Of a stretch of DNA of 64,000 nt, positions 26,037 to 29,621 are shown in pieces. The notes under the pieces were generated by a model. It searched no databases. It saw only the letters and a program-made list of their open reading frames with translations, and was not told where the DNA came from. The DNA comes from a virus, in UHGV virus genome UHGV-0240317, one strand, 5' to 3'. Made by a program: the position numbers and the translations under genes. The first letter of the stretch is position 1. Each line of letters opens with the position of its first letter.

Positions 26037-26624
26037 ATGAAACTGTTAAATATCAAAATCACTGGTACTCGTCCTTTCTTGAGCCATAACGATACGCTGT
26101 CAGACCCATTAAACCCTCTGACAAAATATCACAAGTCCCTGTCCAGTAAACGTAAAAAGACTGACGAAGACTATGCGCTCTTAGCAGAAAGTCAACTGGT
26201 AACTTCTTGTTACTACGATGAGCAGCTAGGTTTTGTTATGAACGGCGAGATGATTGAGGCTTGTATCAAGTCTGGTGCAAAACTCAACAAACTTGGTAAG
26301 GTAATTGACCGAGCCATTATGCTGACAGATGTAGTCTTCCCAATGACTATCAAGAACTGCCCAGCAAACCCACAAGAACTTGCTAAGAATCCAGACTTTA
26401 TCTATGCTAAATCTGTTAAGATTGGCACAGCACGAGTTATGAGCTACCGTCCAATCTTCCGTGACTGGTCTGTAGAGTTTGGTTTGATGTTCGATGAAGA
26501 GCAAATCACCAAAGAAGAACTCCTGATGGTTCTGGAAAATGCTGGCAACCTTTGTGGTGTAGGTGATTGGCGTCCACGCTTTGGTCGTTTTTCTGTAGAA
26601 GTTATTTCAGAAGGTAACGTTTAA
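26037..26624 (+). CDS. hypothetical protein
   Basis: ATG 26037 with GGAG RBS; 195 aa; flanked by repeat arrays. Confidence 0.5.
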
Positions 26625-26626
26625 TT

Positions 26627-27067
26627 ATGAATACAAAAGCATTAGCAGCAAAGTTTAGTTATGGTGACACTGTATCACACTCTGAGATGGACACCTTCTT
26701 AGGTATTGTGAAGCCAACTTATCAAGGTGACATTGTTAAGTACGAAGATGAAATGAAGGCTTATGCGCTTACACGTCTAAACCGACTTGAGAAGTTTATT
26801 GAGAAGCTTCTTAAAGAAGAGAAGATTTATCTGGTTGCTTCAATGGGTGTTGGTTATCGTGTGGTTGAACCTAAGCATCAAGCAACTATTGCAAAACGCA
26901 AAATGTCTGGTAAGATTGGTCGTGCTTTAAAGCAAGCCACTCAAGCTATTGAGAATGTGAACACTATGGCACTTAGTCATCAAGAACGCTCACGACTGAT
27001 TGAACAGCAAAACCATTTAGCTGCTATGAAAGCTAACATTAACAAGCAACGTAGAAAACCTTTCTAA
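26627..27067 (+). CDS. hypothetical protein
   Basis: 146-aa ORF, basic C-terminus. Confidence 0.5.
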   Translation: MNTKALAAKFSYGDTVSHSEMDTFLGIVKPTYQGDIVKYEDEMKAYALTRLNRLEKFIEKLLKEEKIYLVASMGVGYRVVEPKHQATIAKRKMSGKIGRALKQATQAIENVNTMALSHQERSRLIEQQNHLAAMKANINKQRRKPF

Positions 27068-27077
27068 GTTGACTAGG

Positions 27078-27101
27078 TAGCCTCTTCGGAGGCTCCTTTT
27101 T
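27078..27101 (+). terminator. intrinsic terminator with UUCG tetraloop (AGCCTC ttcg GAGGCT) + U5
   Basis: Inverted repeat 27079-27094 followed by CCTTTTTAAAA. Confidence 0.55.
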
Positions 27102-27495
27102 AAAAGGTCTTTAAGAGGGTCTTTTAATGAGGTTTGGTATGGTCAGGTATGGTGTGGTGTTGTAAGGTTTGGTGCGGTCAGGTTAGGCTTGGTATGGGTA
27201 GTTAATCGGAGCTACATAAAAATCCGATTACATCACTTAAGAGTCTTCTAAGAGGGTTTTTAAGTGGTGTTTGGTAGGATAGAGTAAGGTAAGTTAAGGT
27301 AGGGTGAGGTCTGGTATGGTAAGGTAATGTATGGGTAGTTAATCGGAGCTACATAAAAATGAGACTCACATCACTTAAGAGTCTTTAAAAAGGGTTTTTA
27401 AGTGTTGTGAGGTGATGTAAGGTCGGGTATGGCTATGTCTTGTATGGTTTGGTATGGAAGGATGGCAGTAGCCTTATAAAAAATCTGCCAAATAA
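27093..27495. repeat. intergenic repeat array 2: three units of box + GGTNN periodic tract + stem-loop (paralogous to array 1)
   Basis: Units end GGGTAGTTAATCGGAGCTACATAAAAATCCGATT, ...AATCGGAGCTACATAAAAATGAGACT (chimeric, unpaired), GGCAG-tagccttataaaaaat-CTGCC. Confidence 0.6.
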
Positions 27496-27581
27496 GCTAT
27501 AAAATCTGTTGACAGTTCAGGTGTTATAGCTTATTTTTATACTCAACGTCATACAAAATTTAATATAACTTTGAGGTGTTT

Positions 27582-27965
27582 ATGAAAAAGATTTTATTAG
27601 CTGCTGCAATGGTTATGGCAATGAGTTTACCAGTTAATGCAACAGAACTGCCAAATGTGAACTTATCAGGTGTCCCAGAGGATACTTGCCAGATTGTAAA
27701 AGGTGTTGCTCTAGCTAATGGTGAACTACTTAAACCAATCTCTGAAGAGTCTTTAACAGAGATGACTGACAAGGTAACTGACTATCAGTATCGTGTTCTT
27801 GCAGAGTATTTCCTGCAATCTGCAAATATTAAAGAGAAGCACCATGATGATATTGATGTACAGGCTATGCTTAATCATCGTATTCAGTTTAAAGAAGATT
27901 TGATGCAAAAAGCTATGTATGGTGTTGAGTATTTCTTAGAAAACAGAAGCTGCACAGGTATTTGA
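27582..27965 (+). CDS. hypothetical secreted/periplasmic protein (signal peptide)
   Basis: MKKILLAAAMVMAMSLPVNA-TEL: n-region, hydrophobic core, AxA-like cleavage site. Confidence 0.55.
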   Translation: MKKILLAAAMVMAMSLPVNATELPNVNLSGVPEDTCQIVKGVALANGELLKPISEESLTEMTDKVTDYQYRVLAEYFLQSANIKEKHHDDIDVQAMLNHRIQFKEDLMQKAMYGVEYFLENRSCTGI

Positions 27966-27966
27966 T

Positions 27967-28179
27967 ATGGCTCTTAAAAAGTTACATCCCAGAAGCGGTT
28001 ATGGTAAGATAATTGATGATACAGACGGCTTTACAGTCTTTACAGTTATCTGTCAAGATGATTCACAGATTGAAAAGGCTCTTGATGATTATCTTAATGA
28101 TGAACGTGAAAAGGTTAGGGCTACAAACATAGATTCATTGATTGACACTTCACGCAAACGGAAGAAGAAAGATGAATGA
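27967..28179 (+). CDS. hypothetical protein
   Basis: 70-aa ORF. Confidence 0.4.
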   Translation: MALKKLHPRSGYGKIIDDTDGFTVFTVICQDDSQIEKALDDYLNDEREKVRATNIDSLIDTSRKRKKKDE

Positions 28180-28471
28180 AGTTTTTGACCCTTATGCCCC
28201 ACAAGATGATTGGGAGGCTGATAGAGAGGCTGAAATGGAGAGTTATATTTGTCCAATGGATGTAGACGAAATGAGAGACTTCGTTGCACATCGTTTTAAG
28301 AGAGAGATTAAATCAAGAGGTCTTTCTCAAGAGCAAGTTGCTAAAATTTGTGGTATCTCTCAGTCTCGTGTATCCAACATAATCCATCTCACTGGTAATG
28401 TCTCCCTTGAGTATATGTTGGAAGTATGTGAAAAATTTGGTGTTAATTTCAATTTAAGGTTGGCAGATTAA
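28172..28471 (+). CDS. helix-turn-helix (XRE/Cro-like) DNA-binding protein
   Basis: LSQEQVAKICGISQSRVSNI matches HTH_XRE pattern. Confidence 0.55.
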   Translation: MNEVFDPYAPQDDWEADREAEMESYICPMDVDEMRDFVAHRFKREIKSRGLSQEQVAKICGISQSRVSNIIHLTGNVSLEYMLEVCEKFGVNFNLRLAD

Positions 28472-28472
28472 T

Positions 28473-28832
28473 ATGAAACGTGAAAACATTATCCACTCTG
28501 AAAACTTCGCATTAGGCTTTTATGGTGTACCTACTCACCTTGAAAAGTATTATGGTGTAAAAATTCTTTCCAATCTCATTATGGCTTACAAAGATGGTAA
28601 GATTAAGCATACTGAGAAGAAACGTGTCATGGGCTATATGGCTGTAGGTTCAGCAATCTCGAACATTAAGCTGGAAACAACTAGCAGTCAGATTGTGAAA
28701 GACCACTTCATCAAAGAGCTTTACCAGAATCTTGATGGTGTAGATGTTCAGGCTGTTTGGCTGGATGTTGATGGTCACAACTACACAAGTTTTGTTTTTA
28801 AAAACGATGACATCAAGTGTCTGTTCCCATAA
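28473..28832 (+). CDS. hypothetical protein
   Basis: 119-aa ORF. Confidence 0.45.
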   Translation: MKRENIIHSENFALGFYGVPTHLEKYYGVKILSNLIMAYKDGKIKHTEKKRVMGYMAVGSAISNIKLETTSSQIVKDHFIKELYQNLDGVDVQAVWLDVDGHNYTSFVFKNDDIKCLFP

Positions 28833-28835
28833 TAG

Positions 28836-29360
28836 GTGATTACTATGATTGATATCTACTTACAAGATGCTCATGCAGATTTCCTTAAAGTGATGCTTAA
28901 AAAGTTTATGGCTTCACAGTATGAGAATGAAGCATCTTTTAAAATAGTTACATGTGGCGATGAAGCTGGTTTTGTTGAGATTGAACATGAAGGTACTGGA
29001 AAGATTGTTTGTAAGCTACCTGATAGTATGTTCTCTAGCACATTCTTAACAAAGACTAGTATAAATGTTAAGCTTGTGCCTCAGATTGAAACATACTCTG
29101 GTACAGATTACCCTAAAGGTTTTAAGTCACTGATGAAGCACTTCTTAGATGACTTTGTAAGTAATCTTCTGAGGGAGGTAAAAGAAAGTCGTACAGTGTT
29201 GACTGTAGAGAACATAGGAGGAACTATCAAGGTCACTTCTGACTGTTTTGTTATGAGCCTCTTCGACTTCGTCCCTAAGAACTTTGATGGTATTCTGGAT
29301 GAAGAAGATGACTGTGTAGATTTTATATTGGTTCTTGAGCCAGTTTTTGAGGTTAAATAG
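28836..29360 (+). CDS. hypothetical protein (start 28836 GTG or 28845 ATG)
   Basis: 174-aa ORF. Confidence 0.45.
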   Translation: MITMIDIYLQDAHADFLKVMLKKFMASQYENEASFKIVTCGDEAGFVEIEHEGTGKIVCKLPDSMFSSTFLTKTSINVKLVPQIETYSGTDYPKGFKSLMKHFLDDFVSNLLREVKESRTVLTVENIGGTIKVTSDCFVMSLFDFVPKNFDGILDEEDDCVDFILVLEPVFEVK

Positions 29361-29621
29361 ATGAAAATTGAACACTGCTATGAGTCTGATGGAACACCTA
29401 TCCGTTGTCCACATTGTGGGTGTACAGACTTACAAGGTGAGGTAAGTGAAATAGTCAACGGTCATATTGCTGAAGAAAGTACCCGATGCACAGGGTGTAA
29501 TGAAATTATCGCTTTCTGGGCTTATGGTTCATACCAACCATCTCCACATTTTATCTACCATCGTAGTAAAGTTGTGAAGAGTGTCATCAACTGGTTCATT
29601 AAGAAAGGGTTTACAAAATGA
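29361..29621 (+). CDS. hypothetical zinc-ribbon protein
   Basis: CPHCGC ... CTGC cysteine pairs. Confidence 0.45.
   Translation: MKIEHCYESDGTPIRCPHCGCTDLQGEVSEIVNGHIAEESTRCTGCNEIIAFWAYGSYQPSPHFIYHRSKVVKSVINWFIKKGFTK

Follow-up and report, generated by a model that had tools for sequence, protein, structure and literature searches.

A type II VIPR locus and a separate early-gene cluster in a Felix O1-like phage

We identified a complete type II VIPR (Viral Interference Programmable Repeat) locus in UHGV-0240317, of which a stretch of 64,000 nucleotides (the window) was analyzed; the window as a whole comes from a Felix O1-like lytic phage (Felixounavirus). With high confidence, we assign positions 25600-27492 to a type II VIPR locus of the SUSP1 clade and positions 27582-29621 to a separate cluster of conserved early genes. 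A preliminary description had treated the block at 26037-29621, which lies between the ligase gene (24492-25592) and the DHFR gene (29618-30163), as a single accessory island delimited by repeat arrays. The block is instead two distinct things, since its first two genes and the arrays belong to VIPR and the other six are conserved phage genes. VIPR itself is already known: two 2026 preprints describe it as a phage RNA-guided weapon whose guide RNAs silence a parasitic satellite in E. coli (bioRxiv 10.64898/2026.04.26.720920, 10.64898/2026.04.26.720927). The window illustrates that the system can be recognized from raw sequence alone, and hundreds of Felixounavirus entries annotated as "hypothetical protein" or "repeat_region" can now be named.

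Proteins and guide-RNA genes of the VIPR locus

Protein identity, array anatomy, pseudoknot covariation and guide-target matches with controls were computed directly here. The locus comprises the following features.

25600-25627, plus strand: sigma70-type promoter (TTGACA-16-TATACT, 11/12) upstream of vrRNA1-vrRNA2-vipr-vap1
25658-25689, plus strand: AT-rich leader box of vrRNA1, upstream of its repeats
25690-25821, plus strand: vrRNA1, 19 GGY-NN repeats (25690-25784) and pseudoknot tail (25785-25821)
25857-25963, plus strand: vrRNA2, 14 repeats (25857-25926) and tail (25927-25963); leader box 25820-25856
25992-26021, plus strand: weak promoter-like site (TTTACA-18-TAAAGT, 9/12; a consensus match only) just upstream of vipr
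26037-26624, plus strand: vipr, a 195-aa RAMP-like, predicted vrRNA-binding and filament-forming protein
26627-27067, plus strand: vap1, a 146-aa VIPR accessory protein directly downstream of vipr
27079-27104, plus strand: intrinsic terminator after vap1, with a UUCG-loop hairpin at 27079-27094 (AGCCTCTTCGGAGGCT, then a T-run)
27131-27232, plus strand: vrRNA3, 13 repeats (27131-27195) and tail (27196-27232); leader box 27094-27130
27263-27369, plus strand: vrRNA4, 14 degenerate repeats (GAT, GTT, AGT)
27401-27492, plus strand: vrRNA5, 11 repeats and tail (27456-27492)

The 195-aa protein matches the solved structure of the SUSP1 Vipr protein over its full length (PDB 36pp_D; E 6e-128, residues 1-195) and is identical to SUSP1 Vipr at 191/195 positions (98%). 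Vipr of the SUSP1 clade is defined as a minimal RAMP with an RRM core, a G-loop and a thumb. Thirteen of the 14 published contact residues that we checked are kept (H17, K33, R39, E71, M72, K82, G87, K88, R138, C173, D177, W178 and R179). Position 175, where the paper names the contact T175, is a valine here; the GenBank SUSP1 Vipr also has V at 175, and the CGVGDWRP motif is identical in the alignment. Vap1 is identical to SUSP1 AVU07_agp038 at 145/146 positions (99%) and occupies the same gene position in SUSP1. A single-sequence AF2 model of Vap1 (pLDDT 68, medium confidence) has an N-terminal helix-helix-helix-beta-hairpin and long C-terminal helices; its top Foldseek matches are winged-helix regulators, none of them significant (E >= 0.23). 

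The repeat arrays are five vrRNA genes, that is, guide-RNA genes, two of them upstream and three downstream of vipr-vap1. They had been taken for boundaries and are the functional core of the system, which the first reading missed. Two ORFs are indeed flanked by arrays, as described, but the arrays do not delimit the whole block, as the other six ORFs lie downstream of the second array. Matches to GGTNNGGTNNGGT with at most one mismatch number 51 in the window, 44 of them on the plus strand of two intergenic regions; 6.1 per window are expected by chance, and none of 100 shuffles reached 51. The five arrays are strand-specific and limited to these two regions, and the related phage dune, taken over its whole genome, shows the same.

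Each vrRNA gene consists of 11-19 GGY-NN pentamers (19, 14, 13, 14 and 11 in vr1 to vr5, several being AGT or TGT variants) and a covarying 3' pseudoknot tail. Published vrRNAs are tandem YNNGG repeats, 9-16 per array, with conserved GGY and hypervariable NN (SUSP1 VIPR preprints); vr1, with 19 repeats, exceeds this range. The tail pseudoknot, of a kind that belongs to the SUSP1 clade according to the VIPR paper, has two helices and 11 pairs. Across the alignment 91.7% of cells are paired and 9/11 pairs have changed on both sides, a level that 0/500 shuffles reach and that slid controls (26-36%) do not approach. The pseudoknot can form in vr1, vr2, vr3 and vr5, that of vr5 being of an intact GGCAG/CUGCC type. 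The tail of vr4 is of hybrid type: the two strands of its stem 2 (AATCGGA and TGAGACT) cannot pair, and vr4 is probably defective. The last four repeats of vr2 are degenerate AGTGA-type units with no match to the target described below. In a comparison of six phages with 93-95% identical flanks, the NN dinucleotides are completely different, whereas GGY, leader boxes and tails are conserved.

The promoter at 25600-25627 is kept in 6/6 of the vipr-less relatives examined, and the counterpart of the weak site upstream of vipr is annotated as a promoter in phage ASO1B. A search for a convincing promoter of vrRNA3-5, which the terminator hairpin at 27079-27094 separates from vap1, found none; the equivalent SUSP1 RNAs were detected (SUSP1 VIPR preprints).

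The mechanism considered for this phage is carried over from the tested SUSP1 system on the strength of the 98% Vipr identity. In SUSP1, vrRNA expression, Vipr binding and silencing have been shown by small-RNA sequencing, pull-down, GFP and phage assays (SUSP1 VIPR preprints), and from that work we infer vrRNA expression and processing, filament formation, silencing and the biological outcome here. The strong early promoter would drive a transcript of two vrRNAs, vipr and vap1, with three further vrRNAs beyond the terminator, each vrRNA being a run of GGY-NN pentamers capped at the 3' end by an H-type pseudoknot. One Vipr protomer would bind per repeat, sequestering GGY and leaving NN exposed, and the exposed dinucleotides would pair with double-stranded DNA in a gapped register in which two bases are paired and one is skipped. 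The resulting filament would block transcription of the target and leave the DNA uncut.

Guide targets in E. coli satellites

The NN dinucleotides were decoded with the published 1-nt-skip rule and searched in 13 sampled satellites integrated in E. coli. Three of the five guides (vr1, vr2 and vr3) match an integrated satellite perfectly under the 1-nt skip, and one or more perfect sites occur in 9/13 satellites. In the best 10-repeat windows the scores are 19/20 (vr1), 20/20 (vr2) and 20/20 (vr3) with a skip of 1, versus 15-16/20 with skips of 0, 2 or 3 and at most 18/20 with shuffled guides. Matches fall on both strands. Repeats 1-10 of vr2 match at 20/20 and in frame in satellites L008, L010, L015, L016 and L018. 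For vr3, repeats 1-12 score 24/24 in L011, L015 and L020, and 23/24 in L012; these sites lie antisense to the first gene of the satellite (about 184 aa). At the two sites checked (vr2 in L008, vr3 in L011), the skipped base is the codon wobble position. A scan with 9-repeat windows over 24 arrays from six phages gave 17-18/18 for 19/24 arrays with a skip of 1 and at most 16 with other skips. The 1-nt-skip rule and the convergence of guides on the satellite are reproduced independently with different phages, in a small sample of satellites, and the guide set of a single phage covers most of a diverse satellite population.

The two halves of vr1 match separately. Repeats 1-9 score 18/18 in L020 (8729-8754, a 235-aa gene) and repeats 10-18 score 18/18 in the satellite tape-measure gene of L014 and L017; over its full length the best score is 26/38 (<=68%), so that perfect matches exist only as two halves. 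We suggest that vrRNA1 may be a natural dual-specificity guide, with the 5' nine repeats directed at the 235-aa gene and the 3' nine at the tape measure. If so, a Vipr filament silences with half of its repeats engaged, or else two guides are made from the one array. Guides that match by halves in this way would escape the published full-length threshold of >=80%. Guides can be bipartite, or decay.

For vr4, the best target score in the 13 satellites is not above shuffle level. Its exact-pattern matches in IMG/VR, GTDB and metagenomes were rejected as chance hits of an A-rich pattern: their sources are unrelated taxa or uncharacterised viral contigs from metagenomes, and the match extends no further than 23/28. 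No target of vr5 was found in the 13 satellites, nor in IMG/VR, GTDB genomes or JGI metagenomes (0 exact gapped-pattern matches in each of these three). The exact gapped pattern of vr3 also has 0 matches in IMG/VR, and so these satellites are not in that collection. The phage's own genome is matched at background level only (<=16/20), with no self-targeting; self-match scores stay at or below 80% of NN positions in the window (14-16/20, 16/24 and 18/26) and are similar in a complete related genome.

The satellite is an element of ~11 kb integrated in E. coli, with tape-measure and baseplate genes related to the phage's own; the satellite proteins that the VIPR paper names, WP_096972664 and WP_096972663, are encoded by L018. 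From this gene content we infer that the element in the chromosome is a genuine satellite of the phage. The guides vr1 (as two separate halves), vr2 and vr3 would be aimed at three of its genes, and given the relatedness of the tape-measure and baseplate genes, its most likely effect is to keep the satellite from parasitising the infection. The presumed target of the system is a satellite mobile element, and not the host or a host defence system, as host takeover or anti-defence would have it. A role in conflict, which had been proposed for the whole block, fits the vipr-vap1 module in the form of inter-virus conflict and does not extend to the six downstream genes.

The downstream gene cluster

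Downstream of the last array lie a promoter-like site and six genes.

27509-27537, plus strand: promoter-like site (TTGACA-17-TATTTT, 10/12) for the six-gene block
27582-27965, plus strand: 127-aa protein, predicted to be secreted, whose N-terminus, MKKILLAAAMVMAMSLPVNA, reads as a signal peptide; phrog_4332; not part of VIPR
27967-28179, plus strand: 70-aa protein; phrog_4473
28172-28471, plus strand: XRE-type HTH protein; Pfam HTH_3 (E 1.5e-10), phrog_1373 transcriptional regulator
28473-28832, plus strand: 119-aa protein; phrog_4116
28845-29360, plus strand: 171-aa protein; phrog_4422
29361-29621, plus strand: 86-aa zinc-ribbon protein, CPHCGC...CTGC, with two CxxC pairs

All features listed earlier (ORFs, promoters, UUCG terminator, signal peptide, HTH, zinc ribbon and arrays) were recovered at their positions, and it holds that the eight genes of the block have no recognisable replication or structural role. 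The six genes match 259/259 related records, 214/259 of them at >=80% coverage and >=90% identity, and are syntenic with or without vipr, as in the vipr-less phage Bas63. Because they occur in all 259 records and also in vipr-less phages, we consider them conserved core genes. The signal-peptide protein is found in vipr-less phages as bas63_0037, and Bas63 also has a TTGACA... sequence at the place of the promoter-like site.

In Pfam, NCBIfam and PADLOC searches of the eight block proteins, the HTH match alone was significant. The zinc ribbon scores 18.1 bits against NCBIfam Lar (TIGR03655), below the cutoff of 39.6 (E 0.0024), and is possibly Lar-like. It is 84% identical to bas63_0032; the PhageMaP preprint reports Bas63 "gene 32" as Lar-like and conditionally essential, assuming that the gene number equals the locus tag. 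For the 171-aa protein, a reading as Csa5/Cas11a was rejected, as the matches are weak, homologues are few, the AF2 model is alpha/beta (pLDDT 67.6) and Foldseek gave no significant PDB fold.

Distribution, alternative readings and related systems

Among Ounavirinae, vipr occurs in 118 records and array matches in 231, so about half of the related phages have vipr-vap1, and it has been lost from about 113 related records. Variable presence among close relatives, as expected of an accessory island, is seen for vipr-vap1 and not for 27582-29621. The breakpoints of vipr-vap1 presence and absence among close relatives fall inside the arrays, and vipr-less relatives keep decaying relic arrays. Recombination between the arrays on either side appears to have removed vipr-vap1, and relic arrays remain in about half of the Felix O1-like phages. 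The promoter-driven orphan arrays of the about 113 vipr-less relatives might instead be used in trans, and one orphan array matches the satellite integrase gene at 21/22. In vipr-less relatives with a single array, GGY is degenerate and target matches are at background level, which favours relics. We hold the dual-specificity reading of vrRNA1 and, as the less likely of the two, this use in trans to be jointly rather doubtful.

Could the eight genes form one moron-like island, small and independent of each other and serving host takeover, exclusion or anti-defence, the repeats being no more than recombination-prone boundaries? Apart from the HTH protein, the eight have no functional annotation in Pfam, PHROGs or NCBIfam, vipr-vap1 comes and goes among close relatives with breakpoints in the arrays, and a Lar-like zinc ribbon would imply an anti-restriction role. 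We consider this reading very unlikely, because the six downstream genes are ubiquitous and syntenic among the related records regardless of vipr, and the arrays carry sequence-specific information against a satellite together with a conserved RNA structure. It is highly improbable that the locus is a decaying, inactive VIPR remnant like those of relatives that lost vipr. The degenerate vr4 with its broken tail, the degenerate and non-matching 3' repeats of vr2, the lack of a target for vr5 and the many related records without vipr-vap1 would fit such a remnant. Yet neither vipr nor vap1 is disrupted; they are 98-99% identical to the SUSP1 genes, whose activity is shown by experiment, and 13/14 contact residues are kept. 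Three guides match extant satellites perfectly over 9-12 NN dinucleotides, the promoter is intact and 4/5 pseudoknots are too.

A replication origin or R-loop priming region, in which G-rich pentamer iterons on the non-template strand and AT-rich palindromes would lie downstream of a strong promoter and the two ORFs would be origin-associated, is extremely improbable. The locus does have ligase on one side and nucleotide-metabolism genes on the other, within the polymerase-side transcription unit; the two 1-kb windows holding the arrays show a strongly positive GC skew (0.28), AT-rich palindromic boxes are present and transcription from the promoter would run into the arrays. Sequence conservation is expected of iterons, but 2/5 positions are hypervariable between near-identical phages and spell perfect gapped matches to satellite genes; moreover, the tails covary as an RNA pseudoknot, the 195-aa ORF is the solved Vipr protein, and the one array left in those single-array vipr-less relatives that were examined is degenerate. 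Origin or R-loop iterons, and also a TRAP-like protein on a 5-nt-periodic RNA, were dropped as candidates after the 195-aa ORF matched the Vipr structure and the guides matched the satellite.

The VIPR locus closely resembles the type II system of SUSP1 (PDB 36pp; bioRxiv 10.64898/2026.04.26.720920, 10.64898/2026.04.26.720927), with which it shares the genomic slot (ligase gene on one side, signal-peptide gene on the other), the leader boxes, the three tail types, GGY-NN repeats, vrRNAs on both sides of the genes and the convergence of guides on one E. coli satellite family. Unlike in SUSP1, a Suspvirus, the carrier here is a Felixounavirus, the vrRNAs are arranged 2+3 and not 1+3, all guide NN sequences differ, one 19-repeat vrRNA has two separate target halves and one vrRNA is apparently defective. 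The VIPR of a Pseudomonas fulva prophage is also type II, with the same published mechanism, but its carrier is a temperate prophage and its targets are the lysis-lysogeny regulators of prophages resident in the cell, in contrast to a lytic phage acting against a satellite.

The Cas7-family backbone of Class 1 CRISPR-Cas effectors is likewise a RAMP-fold oligomer along a guide RNA, in which a thumb flips bases at regular intervals, with guide-mediated DNA recognition (VIPR paper), and VIPR has been proposed as the ancestor of CRISPR RAMP proteins. VIPR differs in having no repeat-spacer array, cas1/cas2, nuclease or PAM, and its guide is non-contiguous, as 2/5 RNA bases pair to 2/3 DNA bases; this gapped code, which forms an R-loop triplex, is a newly described mode of RNA-DNA recognition. 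In Rfam the arrays gave 0 matches, CRISPR repeat families included, and their period is 5 nt rather than that of repeat-spacer units. PADLOC returned one sub-threshold CRISPR component (Cas11a, E 0.0098), which the structure model does not support. The lytic phage ICP1 offers a likeness, as it carries an RNA-guided system against the chromosomally integrated PLE satellite of Vibrio cholerae, a parasite of ICP1. That system is a canonical type I-F CRISPR-Cas that degrades DNA and acquires spacers, whereas VIPR silences without cutting. Distant Vipr homologues (23-44% identical) were found in Pseudomonas, Gordonia, Mycobacterium and Listonella phages.

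A VIPR locus between ligase and DHFR

The block between the ligase gene (24492-25592) and the DHFR gene (29618-30163) had been described as small plus-strand genes delimited by repeat arrays, and eight plus-strand ORFs were confirmed at 26037-29621. A PDB sequence search with the first, a 195-aa ORF (26037-26624), returned chain 36pp_D, "SUSP1 Vipr protein", over its whole length (E 6e-128). The window protein is identical to the Vipr of SUSP1, an experimentally studied phage, at 191 of 195 residues, and the 146-aa ORF that follows (26627-27067) matches SUSP1 vap1 at 145 of 146. 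Thirteen of 14 contact residues checked are kept in the window Vipr (H17, D177, R138, W178, E71, M72, R179, C173, K33, R39, K82, G87 and K88). The published contact T175 is V both in the window and in the GenBank SUSP1 sequence, and the surrounding CGVGDWRP is identical in the alignment.

[quoted passage not shown] The system itself is remarkable. Vipr is a minimal RAMP-fold protein that forms an oligomer, with one protomer per repeat of a vrRNA in which GGY and NN alternate; GGY is sequestered and the NN dinucleotides are presented, pairing with double-stranded DNA while skipping each third target base, and binding leads to repression of transcription (10.64898/2026.04.26.720920; 10.64898/2026.04.26.720927). 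According to the same two preprints, a vrRNA is ~100 nt long, contains 9-16 repeats and, in the SUSP1 clade, ends in a 3' pseudoknot tail; the locus order is vrRNA(s)-vipr-vap1-vrRNAs, and natural guides of the SUSP1 clade converge on an E. coli satellite phage. By analogy with the SUSP1 and P. fulva experiments, the window's vrRNAs would be transcribed and processed to ~100 nt, Vipr would assemble into a filament that binds DNA as an R-loop-triplex, transcription of the target would be silenced, and vap1 would enhance the effect.

Along its entire length the region is 92-95% identical in nucleotide sequence to numerous Felix O1-like phages of E. coli and Salmonella (ASO1B, KEP3, dune, wV8), relatives that belong to the Ounavirinae, genus Felixounavirus. 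In related records the block genes are all "hypothetical protein", save one "transcriptional regulator", and parts of the arrays are labelled only "repeat_region", "DR_4" or "terminator".

Guide RNA genes and their tails

The repeat arrays proved real: 51 matches to GGTNNGGTNNGGT (at most one mismatch) were seen in the whole window versus 6.1 expected by chance, and 44 of them lie on the plus strand of two intergenic regions. In the complete dune genome, a periodicity scan found arrays of this type at the VIPR locus only. There are five units, two 5' (vrRNA1 and vrRNA2) and three 3' (vrRNA3-5) of vipr and vap1, each running from an AT-rich leader box through 11-19 pentamers in the register GGY-NN to a ~37-nt tail. 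The sigma70-like promoter and UUCG terminator of the preliminary description were recovered as three promoter-like sites and one UUCG-loop terminator, with vrRNA3-5 downstream of the latter.

Signals in and beside the VIPR locus (one leader box per array)
25600-27, promoter-like site (11/12)
25658-89, AT-rich leader box
25820-56, AT-rich leader box
25992-26021, promoter-like site (9/12)
27079-94, UUCG-loop terminator
27096-27131, AT-rich leader box
27231-62, AT-rich leader box
27369-400, AT-rich leader box
27509-37, promoter-like site (10/12), ahead of the six downstream genes

The leader boxes come in two variants that are mutual reverse complements. Each is predicted by RNA folding to form a 12-bp hairpin, which may serve as a processing signal. 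The tails are of several sequence types, all but that of vrRNA4 fitting one H-type pseudoknot (stem 1, columns 3-6/17-20; stem 2, columns 9-15/28-34). The pseudoknots of vrRNA1, vrRNA2, vrRNA3 and vrRNA5 end near 25821, 25963, 27232 and 27492. The fit was measured on 11 non-identical tails of four phages (window, dune, ASO1B and Bas63): pairing holds in 91.7% of cells, and 9 of 11 pairs have changed on both sides. No shuffle out of 500 did as well, and with the partners shifted by 1-3 columns pairing fell to 26-36%. The vrRNA4 tail (27333-27369), the sole outlier, combines the 5' half of one type with the 3' half of another, so stem 2 cannot form. Its repeats are degenerate and its NN A-rich, and vrRNA4 is probably a dead guide born of recombination between units.

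vrRNA1 (25690-25784) has 19 repeats with an internal 30-nt duplication. vrRNA2 has three AGTGA repeats (25893-25921) versus one in phage ASO1B (L002 1857-1941), the arrays being otherwise identical, which suggests slippage-type expansion within the 3' stretch of the guide that does not match. In four of five arrays the final NN ahead of the tail reads AT; because this NN is unmatched wherever the target is known, it probably belongs to the tail. A comparison of six phages shows conservation of the boxes, the GGY positions and the tails, with unrelated NN, except that vrRNA1 and vrRNA2 are common to the window and ASO1B. The arrays number 2+3 in the window and dune, 2+2 in ASO1B and wV8, 2 in Bas63 (no genes between) and 1+3 in SUSP1. 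The window system resembles that of SUSP1 in its near-identical vipr and vap1 as well as in these conserved elements, and differs from it in array number and NN sequence.

Guide matches in an E. coli satellite

The VIPR paper names the satellite proteins WP_096972664 and WP_096972663 and reports a satellite baseplate hub resembling the phage's own. With the window's tape-measure/baseplate region as query, a chromosomal element came up in 476 of 5,426 complete E. coli genomes; querying with satellite genes instead gave 490 (~9% of genomes by either count). Strains with matching satellites include O157:H7 Rafaela_II and MS20645. We sampled 13 diverse copies (L008-L020) out of ~490 carrier genomes. 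Each is ~11 kb, integrated at yciI-tonB, yecN/DUF72 or near wrbA, with a large serine recombinase, small unknown genes, an HNH endonuclease, and tape-measure and baseplate genes; L018 encodes exactly the two named proteins. In three satellites aligned to the window (region 39224-43000, minus strand), the baseplate gene has 69-93% nucleotide identity to the phage's. Two of these three also show ~75% identity to the phage over the opening 135 nt of the tape-measure gene; the remainder of that gene is satellite-specific.

We decoded the arrays to NN-x-NN-x... and scanned both strands of the 13 satellites for the best 10-repeat window. With a 1-nt skip, vrRNA1 scored 19/20 and vrRNA2 and vrRNA3 20/20; skips of 0, 2 or 3 gave 15-16 of 20 for these guides, and sixty shuffled guides averaged ~15.7 with a maximum of 18.

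Guide matches in the satellites
vrRNA3 repeats 1-12: 24/24 in L011 (6128-6162), L015 and L020, 23/24 in L012; antisense strand, first satellite gene (~184 aa)
vrRNA2 repeats 1-10: 20/20 in L008 (12564-12592), L010, L015, L016 and L018; sense strand, 235-aa gene
vrRNA1 repeats 1-9: 18/18 in L020 (8729-8754); same 235-aa gene as vrRNA2
vrRNA1 repeats 10-18: 18/18 in L014 (10307-10332) and L017; antisense, satellite-specific part of tape-measure gene

The two halves of vrRNA1 are thus perfect to different satellite genes, and its full length matches either at no more than 68%; the array may act as a single bipartite guide or as two guides. At both sites checked (vrRNA2 in L008, vrRNA3 in L011) the skipped base is the codon wobble position, as reported in the VIPR paper. 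At least one perfect site occurs in nine of 13 satellites and near-perfect sites (16-23 matches) in three more; the phage's own genome gave background scores only. A 9-repeat window scan of 24 arrays from six phages scored 17-18 of 18 at skip 1 for 19 arrays and never above 16 at other skip lengths, an independent reproduction of the published skip rule.

For vrRNA4, no target above shuffle level was found in the 13 satellites. Its exact-pattern matches are attributed to chance: those in IMG/VR lie in two uncharacterised metagenome contigs and extend to no more than 23/28, and those in GTDB come from genomes of unrelated bacteria and archaea. For vrRNA5, whose tail is intact, the 13 satellites, IMG/VR, GTDB species genomes and JGI metagenomes all yielded no target; one may still exist, the sample being 13 of ~490 satellite-bearing genomes.

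Three of the 13 satellites carry GGY-NN arrays of their own with the phage-type pseudoknot tail, followed in L018 and L020 by a terminator-like hairpin.

Satellite-borne arrays
L009 3320-3404, minus strand, GGY-NN array with phage-type tail
L018 3749-3868, minus strand, GGY-NN array with phage-type tail
L020 4786-4900, minus strand, GGY-NN array with phage-type tail

No vipr was found among the annotated genes of the satellites, so these arrays would depend on the helper phage's Vipr. Satellite-borne vrRNAs are mentioned in the VIPR paper.

Loss of vipr and the neighbouring genes

By tblastn, Vipr occurs in 132 phage records: 118 from Ounavirinae at 90% identity or more (117 at 95% or more) and 14 from phages of Gordonia, Pseudomonas, Mycobacterium and Listonella, in which the homologues are distant (23-44% identical). 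Array sequences occur in 231 records, which leaves ~113 relatives without vipr-vap1. Six vipr-less phages were examined. All keep the upstream promoter, and a vrRNA1-type head is fused to a last-unit tail, with one or two arrays left.

Residual arrays in vipr-less phages
Bas63 (L004), 4508-4850
Five further relatives (L032-L036), ~508-800

The head-tail junction is of the kind that recombination between the arrays on either side would yield, and the pattern looks like a deletion of vipr-vap1 with later decay. In Bas63 and humlepung, the first orphan guide retains a 21/22 match to the gene for the satellite integrase, versus a shuffle maximum of 19. In the four single-array phages GGY is degenerate, three have NN sequence in common, and nothing in the satellites scored above background (14/18). 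We do not favour a working trans-acting system for the orphan arrays and read them as relics.

The block was as first observed; its reading as accessory, moron-like genes for host takeover, superinfection exclusion or anti-defence was right in part only. Beside the VIPR locus it holds six genes (27582-29621) that are matched in 259 of 259 related records, 214 of them at 80% query coverage and 90% identity or more and the others (Mooglevirus etc.) at 60-80% identity, and that are syntenic in vipr-less phages too. The PHROG of each is of unknown function, the HTH protein excepted (Pfam HTH_3, E 1.5e-10). The 127-aa protein has a typical predicted N-terminal signal peptide. The 86-aa zinc ribbon has two CxxC pairs, scores 18.1 bits against the Lar family model (cutoff 39.6) and is 84% identical to bas63_0032. 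According to a PhageMaP preprint, "gene 32" of Bas63 is Lar-like and its essentiality is lower in DH10B; this gene is bas63_0032 only if the preprint's numbering equals the locus tags. A Csa5/Cas11a-like protein would be intriguing beside a RAMP ancestor; the 171-aa protein gave weak matches of this kind in three libraries, its AF2 model is alpha/beta (pLDDT 67.6, few homologues) with no significant match among PDB folds, and we do not support the assignment.

Elsewhere in the window, the DNA polymerase gene is divided between two ORFs by a plus-strand group I intron at 22379-22662 (Rfam RF00028, 62.3 bits, E 4e-14).

ORFs around the intron
20269-22482, plus strand
22712-23266, plus strand
23267-23803, plus strand

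Among related records, some carry the label "DNA polymerase (x2)" and others are without the ~280-nt insert. An ORF for an HNH/AP2-type homing endonuclease follows the split polymerase.
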